Shown here: positions 83 through 9,741 of the stretch, one piece after another
Layout: every line of letters begins with the position of its first letter
Numbering within the stretch: position 1 is the first letter of the stretch
IMG/VR virus record: IMGVR_UViG_2617270945_000014
Length of the DNA: 10,350 nucleotides
Strand: one strand, 5' to 3'
DNA from: a virus
Taxonomy: Duplodnaviria; Heunggongvirae; Uroviricota; Caudoviricetes
The notes under the pieces: generated by a model
What the model was told of the DNA's origin: nothing
The model's input: only the letters and a program-made list of their open reading frames with translations
Databases searched by the model: none
Made by a program: the position numbers and the translations under genes

Positions 83-520
83 TTGATGGATAAACCTACA
101 GACTGGCGCTCCGGAACCCGCCGGATATTTTCTAATGAATTTAAACTTCATATGGTTGAACTGGCTTCGAAACCAAATGCCAATGTTGCACAACTGGCCC
201 GGGAACATGGCGTTGATAACAACCTGATTTTTAAATGGCTACGCCTCTGGCAAAGAGAAGGACGTATTTCTCGTAGAATGCCTCCAACTATTGTAGGCCC
301 TACAGTATCACAATCTTTTCCGGCCTCTCCGACTCTGGTTCCAGTGGAACTTATCGACACCCCGCGCTGTGCTACAGATGCTCCTGCTCCGGGGGCATTA
401 TCAGTTGCTTGTGCAGCTTCCTGCCATGTGGAATTCCATTACGGTAAAATGATGCTGGAAAATCCTTCACCAGAGCTGCTCACGGTGTTGATCCGTGAGC
501 TGACCGGGAGGGGACGATGA
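83..520 (+). CDS. tnpA: IS66-family accessory protein TnpA (orf1)
   Basis: 145-aa ORF, first gene inside the IS; its stop overlaps the start of the next ORF (ATGA at 517-520), as is usual for IS66 orfA/orfB. Confidence 0.8.
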   Translation: MMDKPTDWRSGTRRIFSNEFKLHMVELASKPNANVAQLAREHGVDNNLIFKWLRLWQREGRISRRMPPTIVGPTVSQSFPASPTLVPVELIDTPRCATDAPAPGALSVACAASCHVEFHYGKMMLENPSPELLTVLIRELTGRGR

Positions 521-867
521 TTTCACTCCCATCAGGTACCCGTATCTGGCTCGTTGCCGGCGTTACTGATATGCGTAAATCCTTCAACGGTCTGGGGGAG
601 CAGATACAGCATGTGCTGGATGATAACCCCTTCTCCGGTCACCTGTTTATCTTCCGTGGCCGACGGGGAGACACGATTAAAATCCTGTGGGCTGATGCTG
701 ATGGTCTGTGCCTGTTCACCAAACGCCTTGAGGAAGGTCAGTTTATCTGGCCTGCGGTGCGTGACGGTAAGATATCCATTACCCGCTCGCAACTGGCAAT
801 GCTCCTCGATAAGCTGGACTGGCGTCAGCCAAAAACATCCCGCCTTAACGCACTGACAATGTTGTAA
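517..867 (+). CDS. tnpB: IS66-family accessory protein TnpB (orf2)
   Basis: 116-aa ORF with the characteristic IS66 Orf2 sequence (…IWLVAGVTDMRKSFNGL…FIFRGRRGD…KILWAD…), translationally coupled to orfA. Confidence 0.85.
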   Translation: MISLPSGTRIWLVAGVTDMRKSFNGLGEQIQHVLDDNPFSGHLFIFRGRRGDTIKILWADADGLCLFTKRLEEGQFIWPAVRDGKISITRSQLAMLLDKLDWRQPKTSRLNALTML

Positions 868-897
868 AAAACGCCGGGCCGGATTATAAAAACGGCC

Positions 898-2511
898 ATG
901 AGTCAGAAATACCTCATTCGCATCGCTGAGCTGGAAAGGCTGCTCTCTGAGCAGGCTGAAGCCCTCCGTCAGAAAGACCAGCAACTGAGTCTGGTTGAAG
1001 AGACGGAGGCCTTCCTGCGCTCTGCACTGGCACGTGCCGAAGAAAAGATCGAAGAAGATGAGCGAGAAATAGAGCATCTGCGGGCTCAGATAGAAAAACT
1101 GCGCCGGATGCTGTTCGGAACCCGTTCTGAAAAACTGCGTCGTGAGGTTGAACAGGCTGAAGCCCTGCTGAAACAACGCGAGCAGGAAAGCGATCGTTAC
1201 AGTGGGCGTGAGGATGACCCGCTGGTTCCCCGCCAGTTGCGACAGTCGCGCCATCGTCGTCCGTTACCGGCACATCTCCCCCGTGAAATATACCGCCTGG
1301 AGCCTGAAGAAAGCTGTTGCCCGGAGTGTGGCGGTGAGCTGGATTATCTGGGGGAAGTCAGCGCAGAACAACTGGAACTGGTGAGCAGCGCCCTGAAAGT
1401 GATCCGCACAGAACGGGTAAAAAAAGCCTGTACAAAATGTGACTGCATCGTTGAAGCACCGGCGCCGTCCCGCCCGATAGAGCGTGGTATCGCGGGCCCC
1501 GGATTACTTGCCCGCGTGTTAACGGGAAAATACTGCGAACACCTGCCACTGTATCGTCAGAGTGAAATCTTTGCCCGACAGGGTGTCGAACTGAGCCGTG
1601 CATTACTCTCCAACTGGGTTGACGCGTGCTGCCAGTTAATGACGCCGCTGAATGATGCCCTGTACCGTTATGTGATGAATACCCGCAAGCTTCACACTGA
1701 CGACACACCGGTAAAGGTACTGGCACCGGGCCTGAAAAAGACGAAAACAGGGCGCATCTGGACGTATGTCCGGGATGATCGCAATGCGGGTTCGTCATCT
1801 CCTCCGGCGGTCTGGTTCGCGTACTCATCGAACCGGCAGGGGAAACACCCGGAGCAACACCTCCGCCCCTTCCGGGGTATCCTGCAGGCGGATGCGTTCA
1901 CAGGTTATGACAGGCTGTTCAGTGCAGAACGTGAAGGTAGTGCGCTGACAGAAGTTGCGTGCTGGGCTCATGCCCGGAGAAAAATCCACGATGTATACAT
2001 CAGCAGCAAAAGTGCGACGGCAGAAGAAGCCCTGAAGCGAATCAGTGAACTGTACGCCATCGAGGATGAAATACGGGGATTACCAGAGTCAGAGCGTCTT
2101 GCAGCCAGGCAGCAGCGAAGCAAAGCGTTACTGACGTCGCTGCATGAATGGATGGTGGAGAAGAATGGCACGCTGTCGAAAAAATCCAGACTGGGCGAAG
2201 CGTTCAGCTATGTACTGAATCAGTGGGACGCCCTCTGTTATTACAGTGATGACGGTCTGGCGGAGGTGGACAATAACACAGCGGAAAGAGCGCTTCGTGC
2301 AGTCTGTCTCGGAAAGAAAAATTACGTGTTCTTCGGTAGCGATCACGGCGGCGAGCGTGGAGCACTGCTGTACGGGCTGATCGGCACCTGCCGTCTGAAC
2401 GGTATCGATCCGGAAGCGTATCTGCGCCATATTCTGAGCGTACTGCCGGAATGGCCCTCCAACCGTGTTGACGAACTCCTGCCATGGAACGTAGTACTCA
2501 CCAATAAATAA
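898..2511 (+). CDS. tnpC: IS66-family transposase (orf3/TnpC)
   Basis: 537-aa ORF with an N-terminal coiled-coil/leucine-zipper-like region, a CxxC…CxxC zinc-finger-like motif (CPECGG…CTKCDC) and a DDE-type core, which is the IS66 transposase architecture. The stop lies 30 bp before the right IR end. Confidence 0.9.
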   Translation: MSQKYLIRIAELERLLSEQAEALRQKDQQLSLVEETEAFLRSALARAEEKIEEDEREIEHLRAQIEKLRRMLFGTRSEKLRREVEQAEALLKQREQESDRYSGREDDPLVPRQLRQSRHRRPLPAHLPREIYRLEPEESCCPECGGELDYLGEVSAEQLELVSSALKVIRTERVKKACTKCDCIVEAPAPSRPIERGIAGPGLLARVLTGKYCEHLPLYRQSEIFARQGVELSRALLSNWVDACCQLMTPLNDALYRYVMNTRKLHTDDTPVKVLAPGLKKTKTGRIWTYVRDDRNAGSSSPPAVWFAYSSNRQGKHPEQHLRPFRGILQADAFTGYDRLFSAEREGSALTEVACWAHARRKIHDVYISSKSATAEEALKRISELYAIEDEIRGLPESERLAARQQRSKALLTSLHEWMVEKNGTLSKKSRLGEAFSYVLNQWDALCYYSDDGLAEVDNNTAERALRAVCLGKKNYVFFGSDHGGERGALLYGLIGTCRLNGIDPEAYLRHILSVLPEWPSNRVDELLPWNVVLTNK

Positions 2512-2930: not shown

Positions 2931-3086
2931 TTACTCCTCAGGTTCGTAAGCTGTGAAGACAGCGACCTCCGTCTGGCCGGTTCGGAGTCGTACCTCGCAG
3001 AGGTCTTTCCTCGTTACCAGTGCCGTCACTATGACGGTTAAACAGATGACGATCAGGGCGATTAACATCGCCTTTTGCTGCTTCAT
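2931..3086 (-). CDS. hokD: Hok/Gef-family type I toxin (small membrane-depolarising peptide), HokD/RelF-like
   Basis: 51-aa product MKQQKAMLIALIVICLTVIVTALVTRKDLCEVRLRTGQTEVAVFTAYEPEE, recognised from memory as near-identical to E. coli HokD/RelF and close to Gef/HokC. It has one transmembrane helix and the conserved Cys. Start taken at the internal ATG (3084-3086) rather than the 70-aa in-frame extension. Confidence 0.9.
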   Translation of the reverse strand: MKQQKAMLIALIVICLTVIVTALVTRKDLCEVRLRTGQTEVAVFTAYEPEE

Positions 3087-3323
3087 AGCCTGCTTCCCCT
3101 TGCCTTTCGGCACGTAAGAGGCTAACCTACATTTGTGAGACATAGATTGGGCCTCAGATTAATGTTAAGCGTCTTGCAGGACGCGAAATGTTAACTGGGG
3201 CTTTTCTCTATCTGCCTTTCAGTGTTCATGCCTGAGACAGATAGCCTCAAGCACCCGCAGCCATTCTACTTAACTCACGTCACCTCGCCAATATGAAATC
3301 AATCAGAAAGGTGATCCATAAAA

Positions 3324-4010
3324 TCACTCCTTCTCTTCTTTTCCGTAGTGGAGTTGGCCAATTTTGATAAGAGGGCGTCCCTGAGATTTGCGGTGTAGAT
3401 TGGTATCGCGCAGAGAATACACACAGCCACAATATTCCTGCTGATAGAATTTTTCGCGCTTGCTGATTTCAATCATACGGGACGAGCCGCCCTGCTTGCG
3501 CCAGTTATAATCCCAGTACACCATACCCGGATAATGCGCAACAGCTCGCCGCCCACACTCGTTAACCTGCTGCATATTTTTCCAGCGTGAAATGCCCAGT
3601 GAACTGCTGATCACACTGAAACCATTTTCAGCAGCGTACAACGCTGTCCGCTCAAAACGCATGTCAAAACACATGGTACAACGGATCCCCCTCTCAGGCT
3701 CCCATTCCATTCCTTTGGCACGTTCAAACCAGTTGTCGGTGTCGTAATCAGCATCGATAAACGGCACGCCGTGTTGTTCAGCAAAGCGAATATTTTCATC
3801 CTTACGAATTAAATACTCTTTCTGAGGATGAATGTTCGGGTTGTAGAAAAAGATGGTGTAGTCGATTCCCGAGGCCTGAAGCGCCTCCATCACTTCACCG
3901 GAACATGGAGCACAGCAAGAGTGCAGTAGTAGTTTGTTTGCCCCGTTTGGGAGCTCCAATTTAGGCCGTTTGAAATCAGCAATAGTCATAAATATTTTTA
4001 TTGGGGTCAT
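3324..4010 (-). CDS. queH: QueH-like epoxyqueuosine reductase homologue (DUF208 family); start codon uncertain (3989 or 4010)
   Basis: 228-aa ORF with motifs recalled for the QueH/DUF208 family: N-terminal [27 protein letters not shown] and C-terminal [11 protein letters not shown] (Cys-rich Fe-S ligand pattern). Neither candidate ATG has a clear Shine-Dalgarno sequence. Confidence 0.65.
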
Positions 4011-4163: not shown

Positions 4164-4589
4164 CTAGTAACGTCTAAAATACCTAACATTTCCTTGATAA
4201 AATGCCAGTACACGCTGCATAGCTTCGCTCTTCCGGCACTCGCGACAGATTATATTCAGGCGCCTGTCGTAGCGGCGTATTTCGCCGTCTGGTAACGACC
4301 AGATAAGGTCCGGATCAACCACTGCAGGTTTCTTCACCTTTGCCCTTGAGAGTTTTTTGCGAGCATTTTGCCAGTCCTTACGCGCCTGTTCAGACGGGAA
4401 TAACCCGTAACCAGAGTTGTATACATCGCCACTGGCAACCAGCTCTCTGGCGAGAACACTCATCAGATATCTTGTCGCACCTGTCCTGGCTTCCAGTTGC
4501 CGCAACGTCTCGCGACCGCTCAGACGTACAAGTTCAACAACCTGCCCTTTAATTTTTTCCCGCTCTTCTTGTGTAAATACTTTTGCCAT
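4164..4589 (-). CDS. Ren-like protein (lambda ren family) with an extended N-terminal region
   Basis: C-terminus NIICRECRKSEAMQRVLAFYQGNVRYF resembles the lambda Ren C-terminus (…FKECRQSAAMKRVLAVYG…) as recalled. It sits after the replication genes, as ren does in lambda. Start at ATG 4589, preceded by GGAGG; the ORF track's start at 4604 is a TTG. Confidence 0.6.
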   Translation of the reverse strand: MAKVFTQEEREKIKGQVVELVRLSGRETLRQLEARTGATRYLMSVLARELVASGDVYNSGYGLFPSEQARKDWQNARKKLSRAKVKKPAVVDPDLIWSLPDGEIRRYDRRLNIICRECRKSEAMQRVLAFYQGNVRYFRRY

Positions 4590-4604
4590 AAGCGCCTCCG
4601 GCAA

Positions 4605-5375
4605 TCACTTTTCCGATACAACACGGCGGGAAGAATCAGTAATCTGTCGAACAATATCCCGGTGCTTGTTCAGCTCCCGCAGCGCGGCGCAGACTCGCTC
4701 CCACTTCTGAACATCACTTTTCGCCCTGCGCAGCGCCAGGTTTGCCCTGCGAAGGGACGGAAAAATCAGCTCATCTGCTTGCGTTTCGGTAAACGATGGC
4801 AACGGCTGCACAATGTCCGCCACAGTTTCTGTTTTAATTTCTTCCTGTGTTGCGGCTTCCCGGACTGGTAACGCAGCACCTGCTGGCTGAGGAAAGGCCT
4901 TACCATCACTTTCCGTTACCAGCGCGGCTTTCGGCTCTGCTGGTAAATTATCGCCCGGCATGCAGTAACGAAATTTACCGTTCTGATTAACGCGTGCCAG
5001 CCGCCCCGTTGCGGTTACCACCGCCAGCGTGGAAGCAACCTTGCGAGTACTGACACTGAACTTACCCGCCAGTTCCTCACACGTTTTAGCCCCATCCTGA
5101 CCGATAAACTCAATCATCATGTCTGCGGTAACTTTTTGTTCGACCTCCCCGGTCAGCATATCCTGTGCTTCAGATTTTACTGGCCGCTCTTCGGTTACCC
5201 GGGATTCACCTTCGCCAGCCAGAAACCAGGTGTGACCAGTTTTATCAACGACGCCTTTTCTTTTGAGTTCCCACAGCTCGTTGACAGCCTCTTCACGACT
5301 GATTCCAAGGCGAGCTGCCACCACATGTGAAGAGGCTTTTTTCAGTGCTTTCAGTGCGTCAGATACGGTTTCCAT
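4605..5375 (-). CDS. Hypothetical prophage protein with two winged-helix-like segments (possibly DUF1627-type)
   Basis: 256-aa ORF with a GGAGGA Shine-Dalgarno sequence 8 nt upstream. Its stop abuts the start of the Ren-like gene, suggesting an operon. Function is unknown; the DUF1627 label is a weak recollection. Confidence 0.6.
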   Translation of the reverse strand: METVSDALKALKKASSHVVAARLGISREEAVNELWELKRKGVVDKTGHTWFLAGEGESRVTEERPVKSEAQDMLTGEVEQKVTADMMIEFIGQDGAKTCEELAGKFSVSTRKVASTLAVVTATGRLARVNQNGKFRYCMPGDNLPAEPKAALVTESDGKAFPQPAGAALPVREAATQEEIKTETVADIVQPLPSFTETQADELIFPSLRRANLALRRAKSDVQKWERVCAALRELNKHRDIVRQITDSSRRVVSEK

Positions 5376-5396: not shown

Positions 5397-6143
5397 TTAC
5401 TTCACAACCCTCATATTGCTGACATTTGGACGCCAGCTATCCCAGTTAAACGTCACCCATCGACCACCGTTCATGGTCATGCGGTCCATAATCCTCTCAC
5501 CAAGAAGCGTACTCATTGCGGCATGATTCAGGTTTGTTAACATCCCGACACTGCACAGTGATGCTGTCCGGCGATCAATTATCTGGTGCAATACCACCTG
5601 CTCGTTTTTCGTCTCCCGCTGAACGCCTATTTCATCCAGGACCAGCAAATCAACCCCGCAAAGCTCCTGTAAAAATTTTTCCCCGGATTTGCCGTTGTCG
5701 TAGCTGTCATGCAACACGCTCATGACGTCAGACACGGTGACGATAATCACGCTGCGCCCCTTCACCATCAGCCGGTTGCCCATCGCCGCTGCAAGGTGAT
5801 TTTTCCCGGTGCCGGTTTTACCGCTGAACACAAAATTCGTGCACCCGGTCATCAGTTCGTCAGCTATGGATTTGGCCTGGCTCAGCGCGTATTTTTGCCC
5901 GTCGTTCTGCACCTGATAATTTGCAAACGAGCATTTGCTGTGCAGAGGCTGGATGCCCGAACGATTCAGGATTTTTTCCACCCGCAACTGGCGATTCTGG
6001 CGGTTAATCTCCTCGCTGCGTTTTCGTCCTTCAGCAAGTTGCCATTCCCGCCACTCCTCCACCGTCCGGTACGGTGGAACCGACCCCTGTGGTGCAAGTC
6101 TGCGAATACGTTCAAGAACCCCAACTGCCGCAATGTTTTTCAT
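5397..6143 (-). CDS. DnaC/IstB-like AAA+ replication helicase-loader (Rac YdaV-like, lambda P functional analogue)
   Basis: 248-aa ORF with Walker A (GKTGTGKNHLAAA) and Walker B (DLLVLDEIG) motifs, located immediately downstream of the O-like initiator gene. Confidence 0.85.
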   Translation of the reverse strand: MKNIAAVGVLERIRRLAPQGSVPPYRTVEEWREWQLAEGRKRSEEINRQNRQLRVEKILNRSGIQPLHSKCSFANYQVQNDGQKYALSQAKSIADELMTGCTNFVFSGKTGTGKNHLAAAMGNRLMVKGRSVIIVTVSDVMSVLHDSYDNGKSGEKFLQELCGVDLLVLDEIGVQRETKNEQVVLHQIIDRRTASLCSVGMLTNLNHAAMSTLLGERIMDRMTMNGGRWVTFNWDSWRPNVSNMRVVK

Positions 6144-6149
6144 GACACG

Positions 6150-7112
6150 TCACCCCCTGAATCCCGGCGGTATTTCAGTGTCCGGTTCAGAAATGTGATT
6201 CACGCAACGCTGCGCAGGCGAACGCCCCAGGCGGATAACCAGTTCATCCCATTTTTCCCGGAGTTTTGCCGGACTCATGATGTTTTTTACCCAGAACGAA
6301 TCCCGCTGGAGACGCCCAAACATTTCACAAATTTGTCTGTGAGTTCTGCCATCCAGCATCCGCATTGTGCGAACGTCATTGGCCCATGCTGTCCAGTTGG
6401 GTTCTTTCGGTCTAGTGATCTCGCCATCATAGCTGGCCGCCTGCTCGTAAAGACTCACGATTCGTCCCCAGATCCACTGTGCGCACACCAAATCTTCCTG
6501 ACTTCCCCACTGGCGTTTTTTCGCACTGAACACAACCGCGTCAGGGTGTCGGGTTAAAAAATCCTGTTCAGCCGTCTGCGGGTCCGGTTGCGAAGCGTCC
6601 GGACAAGAAGATCTTTTATCTGACGGATCAGGTTTTAATACTGACGGATCGGGGTCAATCATCGCCCCCCTAATCGGCAGTTTTTTATCAACAGTTGATC
6701 CATCAAAATTTGACGGGTCAACCGTTGAGGGGGCAATATTTGACGGGTCAACTGTTAACGGGTCATTTTTTGCCGGGCTAATTTTTCTTTTCGGTTTATA
6801 TGACTCACGCGCCGCCGCCGCAGCTGCTTCGAGTTTTTCCACATTAAGCCGATAGATATTGCTTACATTACGCCCACCGACCTTACGCTCTTCCTTCGTC
6901 AGCCAGCCCTCTTTCGCCAGTTCTGCAATAGCCGATTTCACTGTGGATTCACTTCTTGCACCGATCTGACGCCGGATAGTTTCAATGGCAGGCCATGACA
7001 CGCCCTCGTCATTGCTGTAGTCTGCAAGACGGGCCATAACCGCCACCCTGGATAAGATCATGCCGGTGAAGGCGCACCCTTCCCAGACAAGACCATGAAG
7101 CTTGCTGCTCAT
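6150..7112 (-). CDS. Replication initiator, lambda O-like (Rac YdaU-like); N-terminal HTH domain and internal repeat region
   Basis: About 320 aa from the first ATG at 7112 (the ORF track's longer start at 7127 is a GTG). The N-terminus has a winged-helix-like segment (WPAIETIRRQIGARSESTVKSAIAELAKEGWL). The middle contains peptide repeats (TVDPSN…TVDPSN…TVD) encoded by the DNA iterons. Confidence 0.8.
   Translation of the reverse strand: MSSKLHGLVWEGCAFTGMILSRVAVMARLADYSNDEGVSWPAIETIRRQIGARSESTVKSAIAELAKEGWLTKEERKVGGRNVSNIYRLNVEKLEAAAAAARESYKPKRKISPAKNDPLTVDPSNIAPSTVDPSNFDGSTVDKKLPIRGAMIDPDPSVLKPDPSDKRSSCPDASQPDPQTAEQDFLTRHPDAVVFSAKKRQWGSQEDLVCAQWIWGRIVSLYEQAASYDGEITRPKEPNWTAWANDVRTMRMLDGRTHRQICEMFGRLQRDSFWVKNIMSPAKLREKWDELVIRLGRSPAQRCVNHISEPDTEIPPGFRG
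6684..6790. repeat. Putative replication origin: ~30-bp-period iterons inside the O-like gene, followed by an AT-rich tract
   Basis: Palindromic cores TCAACAGTTGA (6688-6698), TCAACCGTTGA (6718-6728) and TCAACTGTTAA (6748-6758) are spaced exactly 30 bp apart. TTGACGGGTCA occurs at 6710-6720 and 6740-6750. An AT-rich stretch follows at about 6776-6800. This matches the ori-lambda arrangement of iterons within the O gene. Confidence 0.7.
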
Positions 7113-7134
7113 AAAACCCCCGAACACCGTGCTT

Positions 7135-7560
7135 TTAGTGCATCACCACAGCATTCCCTGCCGGGCCGCCGCGATTCATCTGGTCATACAAAACAACCGC
7201 TGACGCAACAAAATCATCGACATCCTTCCCCAGCCGATCCCTCCGTTCGACGATCTCACGGTAATATTCAGAACTGTGGCTGCGCATACGGGCCACCAGC
7301 AAAGGCGGCATCGCCTTTTCGATCGCCGGTAACAGAGCCTGCATTTTTTCAACAGCATCAGGGGTGTCTTTCTCTACCCAGCGGAAAATTTTCTGGGTAT
7401 TGCGAGCCAGGGCTTCCGGATGGCTGTCGTCATACAGTTCCGGGAACGTCATACCCAACTCAAAATAAGCCTGGGTTATTCCAGCTGCTGGAACTTTTTC
7501 GCCATCAGGACGCGCCCAGGCATTCATCGCCATGCGGATGTGTTCATGCTTGATTTTCAT
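7135..7560 (-). CDS. YdaT-like protein (Rac prophage YdaT family; in the cII position)
   Basis: 141-aa ORF with AGGAG 9 nt upstream of ATG 7560, overlapping the end of the YdaS-like gene by 17 nt. Size and position match Rac ydaT. Sequence identity is recalled, not searched. Confidence 0.65.
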   Translation of the reverse strand: MKIKHEHIRMAMNAWARPDGEKVPAAGITQAYFELGMTFPELYDDSHPEALARNTQKIFRWVEKDTPDAVEKMQALLPAIEKAMPPLLVARMRSHSSEYYREIVERRDRLGKDVDDFVASAVVLYDQMNRGGPAGNAVVMH

Positions 7561-7825
7561 GAATCAAGCTCCTAGAAAGTGGTTGTGTTAACGTTTTGGT
7601 ATCTTCCAGCTCGGGCCAAATATTCATCCAATCAAAAGGCCTTAGTTGCTGACGTGTAACTTCACCATTACTGGCTCGCTCAATAAGGACACATAACGAT
7701 GCCCCTAACACTTGACCTTTACTCAATGCCTTTCTTAGATAACCGATGCTGGTACCACACTCGCATGCAAACATACGCTGTTCATCTGACGAAAGAGAAT
7801 TGAGAAATATTCTTAATTCTTCCAT
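7544..7825 (-). CDS. Cro-like HTH regulator (YdaS/DicC-position), first gene of the early-right operon
   Basis: 93-aa ORF with AAGGAG 7 nt upstream of ATG 7825. It is divergent from the repressor gene and contains an HTH-like segment (CGTSIGYLRKALSKGQ). Confidence 0.7.
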   Translation of the reverse strand: MEELRIFLNSLSSDEQRMFACECGTSIGYLRKALSKGQVLGASLCVLIERASNGEVTRQQLRPFDWMNIWPELEDTKTLTQPLSRSLIHENQA

Positions 7826-7854
7826 AGCTACTCCTTAGTAAACACAGCAAAGAA

Positions 7855-7930
7855 TACCCACAGGTAAACAAAAGTCAATACCCATAGGTTGTTTACCTTG
7901 CGGTAATCGCATCTATTATTTACCTATGGA
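7855..7930. promoter_or_regulatory. Divergent promoter/operator region between the cro-like and repressor genes (OR-like)
   Basis: Three copies of a 12-bp dyad motif: TACCCACAGGTA (7855-7866), TACCCATAGGTT (7879-7890) and TACCTATGGA (7921-7930, overlapping the repressor ATG). There is also a perfect 10-bp inverted repeat, AGGTAAACAA (7862-7871) / TTGTTTACCT (7889-7898). Confidence 0.65.
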
Positions 7931-8345
7931 CAAATATGAATTTAGACGACAGCAACTCATCAAAATTCGTGATGAGAAATGCGATGGTAAAGCGGTTAAC
8001 GTGGCCAGAAAGATCGGGCGCGAGCCTTCTTATGTATCAAGAATGTTGTACCCAGAGGGGAAAAAGGGAAAAAAACGGATCGCTGATGATATGGTGGAGA
8101 TTATCGAAGAGTCCTTTGGGTTACCCCGGGGATGGATGGATGGTATCGTTTCATCATCAACGAACACAGCCTCCAGTTATGAAACAAGGGTTCTAACGCC
8201 ACGACAACGTATTTTTTTAGATCTCTTAGACGAACTGCCAGAAAGTGAAGCGGATAAATTATTAAAAACTCTTGAAGAGAAAAAACAGTATTACAATATG
8301 ATCTACGAAGAAATCCGTAAAAAGAAAGCACAAAACGCATCATAG
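7926..8345 (+). CDS. Prophage repressor, DicA/RacR-like HTH protein (no S24 peptidase domain)
   Basis: 139-aa ORF divergent from the cro-like gene. It has an N-terminal HTH-like region, and its C-terminal LPESE…LL motif resembles DicA (…LPESEQ…) as recalled. No Shine-Dalgarno sequence precedes the ATG, so the mRNA may be leaderless. Confidence 0.7.
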   Translation: MDKYEFRRQQLIKIRDEKCDGKAVNVARKIGREPSYVSRMLYPEGKKGKKRIADDMVEIIEESFGLPRGWMDGIVSSSTNTASSYETRVLTPRQRIFLDLLDELPESEADKLLKTLEEKKQYYNMIYEEIRKKKAQNAS

Positions 8346-8385
8346 CTCACCAAACAACTAGTCACCAGTTAAGACACCGCAAAAA

Positions 8386-8426
8386 TTTACCCATGGGTAT
8401 TTACTTTTTAAATACCTATGGGTATC
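8386..8426. promoter_or_regulatory. Second operator cluster (OL-like) downstream of the repressor gene
   Basis: The perfect palindrome TACCCATGGGTA (8388-8399) and TACCTATGGGTA (8413-8424) lie 25 bp centre-to-centre, the same motif and spacing as in the OR-like region. Confidence 0.6.
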
Positions 8427-8610
8427 CTTCTTTTCATACCAACCCACCCCGCCCCACAGAATGCAGGGCAATACTTCGAGTTACCAGGCAGTGGTCAGGG
8501 GTTAAGTAGCCAGCCCGAGGCGTAAGAACATGACGGCAGGGTTCAACTTTAATAACTATGCAGCAGGTTTTTGTTCCGCTACCCCGGCGTTAAGGGGAAA
8601 TGAGGTCAGC

Positions 8611-8763
8611 ATGGATACTATCGATCTTGGCAACAGCGAATCTCTGGTATGTGGCGTGTTCCCCAACCAGGACGGTACGTTCACCGCGATGACGTATACC
8701 AGAAGCAAAACGTTTAAAACTGAAGCTGGCGCGCGTCGCTGGTTAACCAGAAACACTGACTGA
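8611..8763 (+). CDS. DUF1391 small protein (YdfA/YdaF-like), first gene of the early-left operon
   Basis: 50-aa product MDTIDLGNSESLVCGVFPNQDGTFTAMTYTRSKTFKTEAGARRWLTRNTD, preceded by GAGG 5 nt upstream. The longer 77-aa ORF from 8530 lacks a Shine-Dalgarno sequence. Sequence and position match YdfA/YdaF as recalled. Confidence 0.7.
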   Translation: MDTIDLGNSESLVCGVFPNQDGTFTAMTYTRSKTFKTEAGARRWLTRNTD

Positions 8764-8774
8764 TGAGGTTGACG

Positions 8775-9095
8775 ATGGAATTTAAAGATTTACCAGTACC
8801 ATTCCAGGAAATGGCATCGAATGTGGTTCGCTCTCAACTGGCGACTCTTGACCTGAGTACCGTAGAAAAAGAAACCATCGACAATATATCCGGTAACGTA
8901 CGCCGAGCCTTTATCGGGCTGTACGAAGAGAAGCAGCTCTCTGATAACCAGGATTTACATGAAAAATACTTCCTGGATCTAATGGACATCATTGATAAGG
9001 GGTTTGGCTTGTTAATGAAAAAGAAAGGGATTCGAATAGAACCCCTTGAAAATTACTTTGCAACAAAAAGCATTAATTCTTTTGATTCAAAATAA
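8775..9095 (+). CDS. Hypothetical protein, 106 aa, in a low-GC cassette (alternative start 8763)
   Basis: ORF in a markedly AT-rich block. GAGG lies 6 nt upstream of ATG 8775, and the alternative ATG 8763 overlaps the upstream stop (TGATG). Acidic/Lys-rich composition; no recognisable motif. Confidence 0.5.
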   Translation: MEFKDLPVPFQEMASNVVRSQLATLDLSTVEKETIDNISGNVRRAFIGLYEEKQLSDNQDLHEKYFLDLMDIIDKGFGLLMKKKGIRIEPLENYFATKSINSFDSK

Positions 9096-9683: not shown

Positions 9684-9741
9684 TTTCTGGTGACGTTTGG
9701 CGGTATCAGTTTTACTCCGTGACTGCTCTGCCGCCCTTTTT
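9684..9741 (+). ncRNA. dicF: DicF small RNA (ftsZ-targeting sRNA of Qin/Kim-type prophages); 5' end approximate
   Basis: Sequence TTTCTGGTGACGTTTGGCGGTATCAGTTTTACTCCGTGACTGCTCTGCCGCCCTTTTT matches DicF as recalled. It ends in an intrinsic terminator and lies immediately upstream of dicB, as in K-12. Confidence 0.75.
9699..9741 (+). terminator. Intrinsic terminator forming the DicF 3' end
   Basis: GGCGG (9699-9703) … CCGCC (9731-9735) stem, followed by TTTTT (9737-9741). Confidence 0.65.

Follow-up and report, generated by a model that had tools for sequence, protein, structure and literature searches.

The window (the whole 10.35-kb stretch of DNA analysed here) is the immunity region of an E. 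coli lambdoid prophage, in which a YdaT/CII-like gene, a YdaS/Cro-like gene, a set of operators, a repressor gene and the OL operators follow one another in that order (Table 1). The prophage is present in many E. coli chromosomes at 99.9% identity, and in one record it adjoins ompW.

Table 1. Genes and control elements of the window. Promoters, operator roles and the transcription start are predictions; operators are given as 12-mers with the enclosing 16-mer in the remarks.
Feature	Positions	Strand	Centre	Remarks
IS66-family element	83-2511	+		
hok/sok	2931-3143 and 3081-3256	-		
queH	3324-4010	-		
DUF977 and DUF1627	4164-5375	-		
DnaC/IstB-like ATPase	5397-6143	-		
O-like replication protein	6150-7127	-		
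CII analogue YdaT	7135-7560	-		~95% identical to CP-933P YdaT; PDB 8BT1, 9.5e-88; PHROG 163 "CII-like"
Cro analogue, YdaS-like, 93 aa	7544-7825	-		Pfam YdaS_toxin (weak); PHROG 35; PDB "Cro" 8c7k and 8co2 at 1e-10
Perfect YdaT operator TTGATTTTCATGAATCAA (TTGATT-N6-AATCAA)	7550-7567			ydaS/ydaT junction; the window's only zero-mismatch match
Intergenic control region, 100 bp	7826-7925			
PR-like promoter TTGACT-16-TATTCT	7851-7878	-		drives the ydaS(cro)-ydaT(cII)-O-dnaC-like operon; overlapped by O1, abutted by O2
O1 TACCCACAGGTA	7855-7866		-65.5	16-mer 7853-7868; PWM 21.3, the window's top score; over the PR-like spacer and -10
O2 TACCCATAGGTT	7879-7890		-41.5	16-mer 7877-7892; PWM 12.0; right half degenerate; predicted PRM-activating position
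-35 hexamer TTTACC	7892-7897	+		embedded in the left half of O3
O3 TACCTTGCGGTA	7894-7905		-26.5	16-mer 7892-7907; PWM 16.1; over the -35; predicted negative-autoregulation site
-10 hexamer TATTAT	7914-7919	+		promoter scan; conserved in close relatives, flanks vary
Candidate "O4" TACCTATGGACA	7921-7932			16-mer 7919-7934; half-site on +1/ATG; 2 mismatches; PWM 7.55, rank 6
ATG start codon	7926-7928	+		A is the predicted +1 of the maintenance promoter
Repressor gene, 139 aa, CI analogue	7926-8345	+		from the ORF list; PGAP start identical (WP_000362153.1)
Second operator pair (OL-type)	8388-8424			
OL1 TACCCATGGGTA	8388-8399			16-mer 8386-8401; PWM 20.9
OL2 TACCTATGGGTA	8413-8424			16-mer 8411-8426; PWM 17.7
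DUF1391 gene and others	from 8530	+		
DicF RNA	9685-9736	+		

The 139-aa protein WP_000362153.1 is recorded as a "hypothetical protein" in RefSeq, and its position, its divergence from the cro-like gene and the operator sets that flank it fit a CI analogue. The PHROG 5736 family ("transcriptional regulator") aligns with it end to end (residues 1-139, 6.4e-70). Over residues 1-86 the protein shares 65% identity with cI of coliphage mEp043 and shows the N-terminal domain pattern of the PHROG 5736 / 12107 type, MDKYE..RR..L..IRD...REPSYVSRMLYPE..KKRIADDM...LPRGWMDG; this mEp043-cI-type domain is also the N-terminal part of hundreds of LexA/S24-type repressors, both within Enterobacterales and outside them. 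The tail (residues 89-134) is helical, and BLASTP aligns it with the C-terminus of DicA at 33% identity over 46 aa. The AF2 model of the repressor (pLDDT 85.8) has a helical N-terminal domain, and its fold matches are to phage repressors or XRE-type helix-turn-helix proteins (SPC32H Rep, C-proteins and the TP901-1 CI N-terminal domain) with marginal E-values and high probabilities. A Pfam search with the protein gave no match even at E=10, the S24 peptidase domain (PF00717) included; that domain is present in relatives with the same N-terminal domain, and the window repressor ends in the helical tail instead. The protein falls short of a full-length DicA match: the DicA model NCBIfam NF007257 scores 24.5 bits against a cut-off of 101 and aligns with residues 86-136 only. 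Against RacR, BLASTP detects no similarity (E=2.3). When the repressor alone was searched against PDB sequences, only noise came back (top match the ADAR Z-alpha domain, E=0.08), and the same search with the family profile returned only the S24 domain, which the window protein does not have. A literature search for the repressor accession and for studies of the mEp043 switch found nothing relevant, nor any paper or dataset on this element.

Relatives of the repressor were collected by a family profile scan of one-genome-per-species contigs, which gave 40 loci; a scan of viral contigs gave near-identical copies only. The loci span gamma- and beta-proteobacteria (Yersinia, Arsenophonus, Edwardsiella, Klebsiella, Pantoea, Brenneria, Aeromonas, Neisseria, Paraburkholderia, Ralstonia, Massilia, Xanthomonas, Stenotrophomonas and others), and anchoring on the conserved start ATG-GAY-AAR-TAY-GAR yielded 42 upstream regions, 36 of them non-redundant.

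The initial annotation held that no Shine-Dalgarno (SD)-like sequence precedes ATG 7926, and this was borne out: the preceding 22 nt, taatcgcatctattatttacct, show no pairing with the 16S anti-SD (best dG +1.9 kcal/mol), and an energy as weak as this is met in only 1.1% of random 22-mers drawn from the window. The corresponding values for the neighbouring ydaS-, ydaT-, O- and dnaC-like, DUF1627 and DUF977 genes are about -6.5 to -10.8, and the ydaS-like gene has a normal SD (AAGGAG, dG -8.6) and an ordinary leader. Across the repressor family the median anti-SD dG is -2.8 kcal/mol, which equals the random-sequence background. An in-frame stop codon lies at 7824-7826, and ATG 7926 is the first start codon after it. 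Every anchored relative starts with ATG, as the window gene does, in a set that is biased in this respect because one search pattern required an ATG. Conservation among the relatives is sharp at this codon, since downstream of it only third codon positions vary and from -1 to -6 there is none, and the ATG is thus marked as the coding boundary.

Translation from a downstream codon (for example GTG 8001 or ATG 8043), with 7926 not the true start, would account for the disagreement of gene callers in some relatives, where N-terminal extensions are annotated or frameshifted alleles are called from ATG 7936. However, those annotated extensions are not conserved, whereas residues 1-11 are invariant or nearly so (M1, K3, Y4, E5, R7, R8 and L11 in homologues 45-85% identical) with codons that vary at third positions only, PHROG 5736 aligns from residue 1, and a downstream start would delete helix 1 of the modelled DNA-binding domain; we regard such a start as scarcely credible. 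The +1-frame open reading frame at 7936-8196 was considered as an alternative product and is unsupported, being only the head of the frameshifted alleles (P0010, P0019).

The sole sigma-70-like match on the plus strand within 7200-8800 is TTTACC-16-TATTAT. Its -10 hexamer is followed by the six bases TTACCT and then by the ATG; the A of the ATG is the seventh base past the hexamer, the canonical start position, and the -1 base is a T, a pyrimidine. From this arrangement we infer that the repressor mRNA is very probably made from a PRM-like, autoregulated promoter, that its 5' end falls at the A of ATG 7926, and that it is leaderless. In the MFE fold of this predicted mRNA the 5'-terminal 20 nt are unpaired.

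The promoter sequence taken singly matches only 9/12 consensus positions, and two such matches are found in the region where 1.1-2.5 are expected. This near-chance density, together with the IS66 insertion in the window and the frameshifted repressor alleles that exist in some genomes, could mean that the match is fortuitous and the gene silent in a possibly cryptic prophage. We think this very improbable: hundreds of E. coli genomes carry the repressor gene intact and >99% conserved, distant relatives keep its promoter geometry (below), and in the analogous Rac prophage the repressor, which silences ydaS/ydaT, is essential for the host.

The position of the -10 element was compared among the 36 non-redundant relatives with a strict definition of the hexamer (A at position 2, T at position 6 and at least 4/6 matches). 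A strict -10 lies 6 nt (n=11) or 7 nt (n=11) before the ATG in 22/36, and shuffling the last 30 nt gave 2.8±1.6 at that offset with a maximum of 9; at each of the other offsets (0 to 33) a strict -10 is found in three sequences at most, with no enrichment. The hexamers themselves vary (TATTAT, TAGAAT, TAAAAT, TATGAT, TAAGAT, TAGACT, GATAAT and others) and only the -10 consensus positions are kept; since the sequences differ, what has been kept is a -10 element and not a protein-specific site. Most of the 14 relatives without a strict -10 at the offset carry a weaker NNNAAT there. A hairpin at 7899-7911 followed by a T-run was examined as a terminator and set aside, as it consists of only five pairs within the promoter spacer and O3 and is of a kind met 0.7-1.3 times per region by chance. 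We also note that TATTAT 7914-7919, the key feature of the segment that the initial annotation described, went unmentioned there.

The operators share the motif TACC-N4-GGTA, with the extended consensus TTTACCTATAGGTAAA, and 10 strand-matches are found in the window where 2.2 would be expected. These matches are confined to the two control regions, and with a position weight matrix (PWM) built from relatives only, the five top scores are those of the five clear operators (O1, O2, O3, OL1 and OL2). TACC-N4-GGTA operators are also present upstream of 36 relatives, in which the TACC of the three sites starts near -73, near -48/-47 and near -33/-32. The centre of O2 falls at -41.5 to -44.5 in every relative that has this site, and its right half is degenerate in nearly all of them, which suggests that binding there needs cooperativity. 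TTTACC or TTTACT lies inside O3, with a spacer of 16-18 nt to the -10, at 34 of the 36 loci having O3. Operators are absent from four loci (L106, L117, L122 and L126) of the 14 without a strict -10 at the offset, and one of these, L117 (from Orbus), has a genuine SD; leadered versions of the gene can thus exist, and the leaderless layout is the one that accompanies the switch.

The initial annotation also placed an operator copy over the start codon. The sequence in question, TACCTATGGA at 7921-7930, does overlap the ATG, but only its left half is a good half-site: the 16-mer TTTACCTATGGACAAA is identical to the extended consensus outside the right-half core, and there GACA replaces GGTA. Its PWM score of 7.55 is reached somewhere in 61/100 shuffled windows (the clear operators score 12-21), and some of the matching bases (ATGGA..AAA) follow from the need to encode Met-Asp-Lys. 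Close E. coli variants (92%-identical protein) retain the site, a Salmonella relative (85% identical) has a C>T change in its core, and none of the 41 more distant relatives has it. It is thus lineage-specific, individually non-significant and of doubtful standing, and it may have a role in repression or be due to chance; of the support that the initial annotation drew on, it is the weakest element. The conserved auto-repression site of this repressor family would be O3, over the -35, with none at the ATG.

Is the maintenance promoter the only source of repressor mRNA? The YdaT operator at the ydaS/ydaT junction bears on this, since in CP-933P a YdaT operator of the same motif is found at the same location (PMC9986795; PMC8630535), and YdaT activates a PRE-like promoter (PRE933P) at that junction, reading towards the repressor (PMC8630535; PMC9986795). 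By analogy, a second repressor transcript probably arises in the window from a YdaT-activated PRE-like promoter, and it would be leadered and SD-less with ATG 7926 internal. The initial annotation suggested that the gene may be translated from a "leaderless or SD-less" mRNA, and each half of that phrase may apply to a different transcript.

A stronger form of this idea is that the repressor mRNA is solely leadered and SD-less, coming from a weak intergenic promoter or from the YdaT-dependent one, with ribosomes recruited, for example, by S1 binding at ATG 7926. With a perfect YdaT operator and the published PRE933P, read-through transcription is very likely; racR is also served by two further promoters upstream (below), so that leadered transcripts could likewise coexist here, and the sequence near the ATG is rich in A/U and lacks structure. 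An exclusively leadered mRNA nevertheless leaves unexplained the -10 found 6-7 nt before the ATG in 22/36 relatives and 16-18 nt after a -35 in O3, and PRE-type promoters are silent in a lysogen, where repressor is still needed. We therefore consider it unlikely, and a leaderless transcript from the PRM-like promoter remains the preferred reading.

Phage lambda offers one of the closest known models of that reading, with its cI gene transcribed from PRM into a leaderless mRNA. The lambda PRM sequence reads TAGATT, then six bases (TAACGT), then the cI ATG, and the spacing from -10 to ATG is identical in the window. The centres of lambda OR1, OR2 and OR3 are at -66, -42 and -19, and those of the window O1, O2 and O3 at -65.5, -41.5 and -26.5, so that the first two agree within half a bp. 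The two regions further share divergent repressor and cro genes, a tripartite operator, the lack of an SD and an OL pair beyond the repressor gene. They differ in that the window repressor has a DNA-binding domain without sequence similarity to that of lambda CI and no S24 self-cleavage domain, its operators are TACC-N4-GGTA 12/16-mers rather than 17-mers, O3 lies over the -35 whereas lambda OR3 lies over the -10 and spacer, and the Cro and CII roles are filled by YdaS- and YdaT-type proteins.

Experimental precedents also come from analogous E. coli prophage switches. In CP-933P of E. coli O157:H7, the paaR2 transcript starts on the start codon by 5'-RACE (PMC8630535, Jurenas et al. 2021), translation from that codon was established by N-terminal sequencing and mass spectrometry, and PaaR2 acts on its own promoter as an activator at low levels and as a repressor at higher ones (PMC8630535). 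The window and CP-933P share the layout of repressor, operators, ydaS, ydaT and O-like gene, with YdaT ~95% identical and the YdaT operator identical. The repressors and their operators differ, the PaaR2 operators being four inverted repeats of the GTTTAGTAA type; the YdaS-like Cro of the window is only distantly related to its CP-933P counterpart, and unlike CP-933P the window has no paaA2-parE2 toxin-antitoxin pair downstream.

In E. coli K-12, the repressors racR (Rac) and dicA (Qin) are divergent from a cro-like gene, as in the window, and primer extension or dRNA-seq shows both mRNAs to be leaderless. The strongest racR promoter, PracR3, gives a leaderless transcript and two further promoters lie upstream (PMC9638921), while dicA, racR and ymfK were found to be leaderless by dRNA-seq (PMC4681348) and are among the known leaderless E. 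coli genes (PMC8794815). DUF1391, dicB and DicF lie downstream in the window as in Qin, and over residues 89-134 the window repressor shares homology with the C-terminal domain of DicA, but the N-terminal DNA-binding domains of the two proteins differ.

With mEp043 the window shares TACC-N4-GGTA operators at the same offsets, and the mEp043 promoter reads TTTACC-16-TAGAAT-6-ATG; an equivalent OL pair adjoins its annotated PL. The mEp043 cI protein, presumably RecA-cleavable, has an S24 peptidase domain where the window repressor has the DicA-type tail, and mEp043 has a lambda-type CII, a 76-aa Cro and no half-site over the ATG.

Taken with the geometry of the promoter, its conservation, the lack of an SD and the positions of the operators, these E. 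coli precedents support the initial annotation's proposal of an autoregulated, leaderless maintenance promoter like lambda PRM, as far as sequence comparison can. In a lysogen, RNA polymerase would place the first base of the transcript on the A of AUG 7926, and ribosomes would use the 5'-terminal AUG, as they do on lambda cI mRNA. Repressor dimers on O1 and on the weaker O2 would shut off the divergent PR-like promoter, and repressor on O2, at -41.5, would probably also stimulate RNA polymerase at the maintenance promoter; excess repressor would fill O3, occlude the -35 and shut the maintenance promoter off. During establishment, the transcript activated by the CII-like YdaT from near 7550-7567 would probably read through ATG 7926.

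Leaderless, autoregulated prophage repressors are already well known, from textbook lambda and from the demonstration in CP-933P, and no concept is changed here. What is modestly new is that an entire repressor family, with a DNA-binding domain unrecognised by Pfam, keeps the design, that O1 and O2 lie at the lambda positions despite unrelated sequences, and that this lineage joins an mEp043-type domain to a DicA-type tail and to YdaS/YdaT partners. A RefSeq "hypothetical protein" of hundreds of E. coli genomes gains a function, as the CI-type repressor of a lambda-style switch, and the short list of leaderless E. coli genes gains one more well-supported candidate. Gene-finding programs that depend on a ribosome-binding site call the wrong start in such genes, as is seen among the relatives in N-terminal extensions that are not conserved and in calls in another frame, and the family-wide conservation provides a natural comparative set for asking why leaderless translation is so common in prophage maintenance repressors.

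More speculatively, and as a proposal that we put forward with considerable doubt, the leaderless design (-35 in O3, O2 at about -42 and -10 6-7 nt before the AUG) might be a fixed ancestral property of the family across gamma- and beta-proteobacteria, whatever the C-terminal domain (S24 or DicA-type) or the Cro and CII partners. In addition, the extra half-site TTTACCTATGG on +1/AUG in the E. coli/YdaS-type lineage might be a functional fourth operator, through which the maintenance promoter could undergo a further round of auto-repression or be shut off specifically by Cro.

Beyond the repressor gene, the OL pair would control the leftward-type early genes. OL1 and OL2 together also form a 16-bp hairpin followed by a T-run, a terminator-like match, and this hairpin could serve as the terminator of the repressor transcript.

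The repressor gene of this immunity region is predicted to start without a leader, at ATG 7926, and genes of this kind that lack a ribosome-binding site would be expected to mislead start-site annotation, which bears on how its relatives are annotated. Many homologous repressors carry short, non-conserved N-terminal extensions in front of the conserved MDKYE (MLMS-, MFC-, MSG-, MVNDVKIAS- and others, in proteins P0028, P0036, P0042, P0064, P0071, P0082, P0101 and P0109), and these are probably systematic gene-caller mis-starts that arise because leaderless genes have no ribosome-binding site. Frameshifted repressor alleles are also present in some E. coli genomes (proteins P0010 and P0019; window 7936–8196, +1 frame); their annotated start is ATG 7936 in another frame (MNLDDSNSS...), with the repressor frame regained further on, and they are probably pseudogenes or sequencing errors rescued by gene callers.

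Phage Tritos, whose CI shares a DicA-type C-terminal domain with the repressor studied here, has a near-consensus −10 hexamer, TATCAT, that ends 7 nt 5' of the CI ATG (locus L005, 1880–1922), and the annotated cro start lies just 7 nt away. These features suggest that the leaderless layout is present in the DicA-like group as well, where the annotation of the cro start may be wrong.

In the homologous loci L087–L125 the O1 and O3 operators are near-perfect, unlike the middle operator, O2, whose right half is degenerate in nearly all of them (GGTT, GGGA, GGCC or GGGC versus GGTA). Such a consistently weak half-site suggests that O2 occupancy relies on cooperativity, as it does at lambda OR2. 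The OL-type operator pair beyond the repressor gene makes up a 16-bp hairpin with a 5-nt loop, followed by TCCTTCTTTT (window 8388–8434), so the same DNA may serve both as operators and, when transcribed, as an intrinsic terminator of the repressor message. The PL-like promoter listed for this region in the table below (TTTACT-17-TATCCT) scores under the promoter-scan threshold.

The window's YdaT, the CII analogue, is ~95% identical to the crystallised CP-933P YdaT (PDB 8BT1), and its operator motif is present as a perfect copy; on these sequence grounds the right arm of the switch is CP-933P-like, while its repressor, Cro and operators belong to another immunity type.

Additional features of the window
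Feature	Coordinates	Strand	Content or position	Basis
Weak PL-like promoter	TTTACT 8400–8405, 17 nt, TATCCT 8423–8428		between/over both OL sites	sequence read by eye
YdaT operator TTGATT-N6-AATCAA	7550–7567		covers ydaT start and ydaS end	published motif, perfect match
IS66-family element, complete	83–2511		HTH_Tnp_1 ORF, IS66 Orf2/TnpB ORF, DDE_Tnp_IS66 transposase	
hok/sok type I toxin-antitoxin locus	2931–3256	−	Hok/Gef family ORF 2931–3143 and sok RNA	
sok RNA	3081–3256	−		Rfam, 120 bits
DicF small RNA	9685–9736	+	downstream of repressor arm	Rfam, 76.7 bits

The IS66-family element is missing from the otherwise collinear prophage of NZ_CP062910.1 (locus L001). DicF also lies downstream of the repressor arm in phage Tritos and in the Qin prophage. 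In related prophages, dicB comes after DicF.
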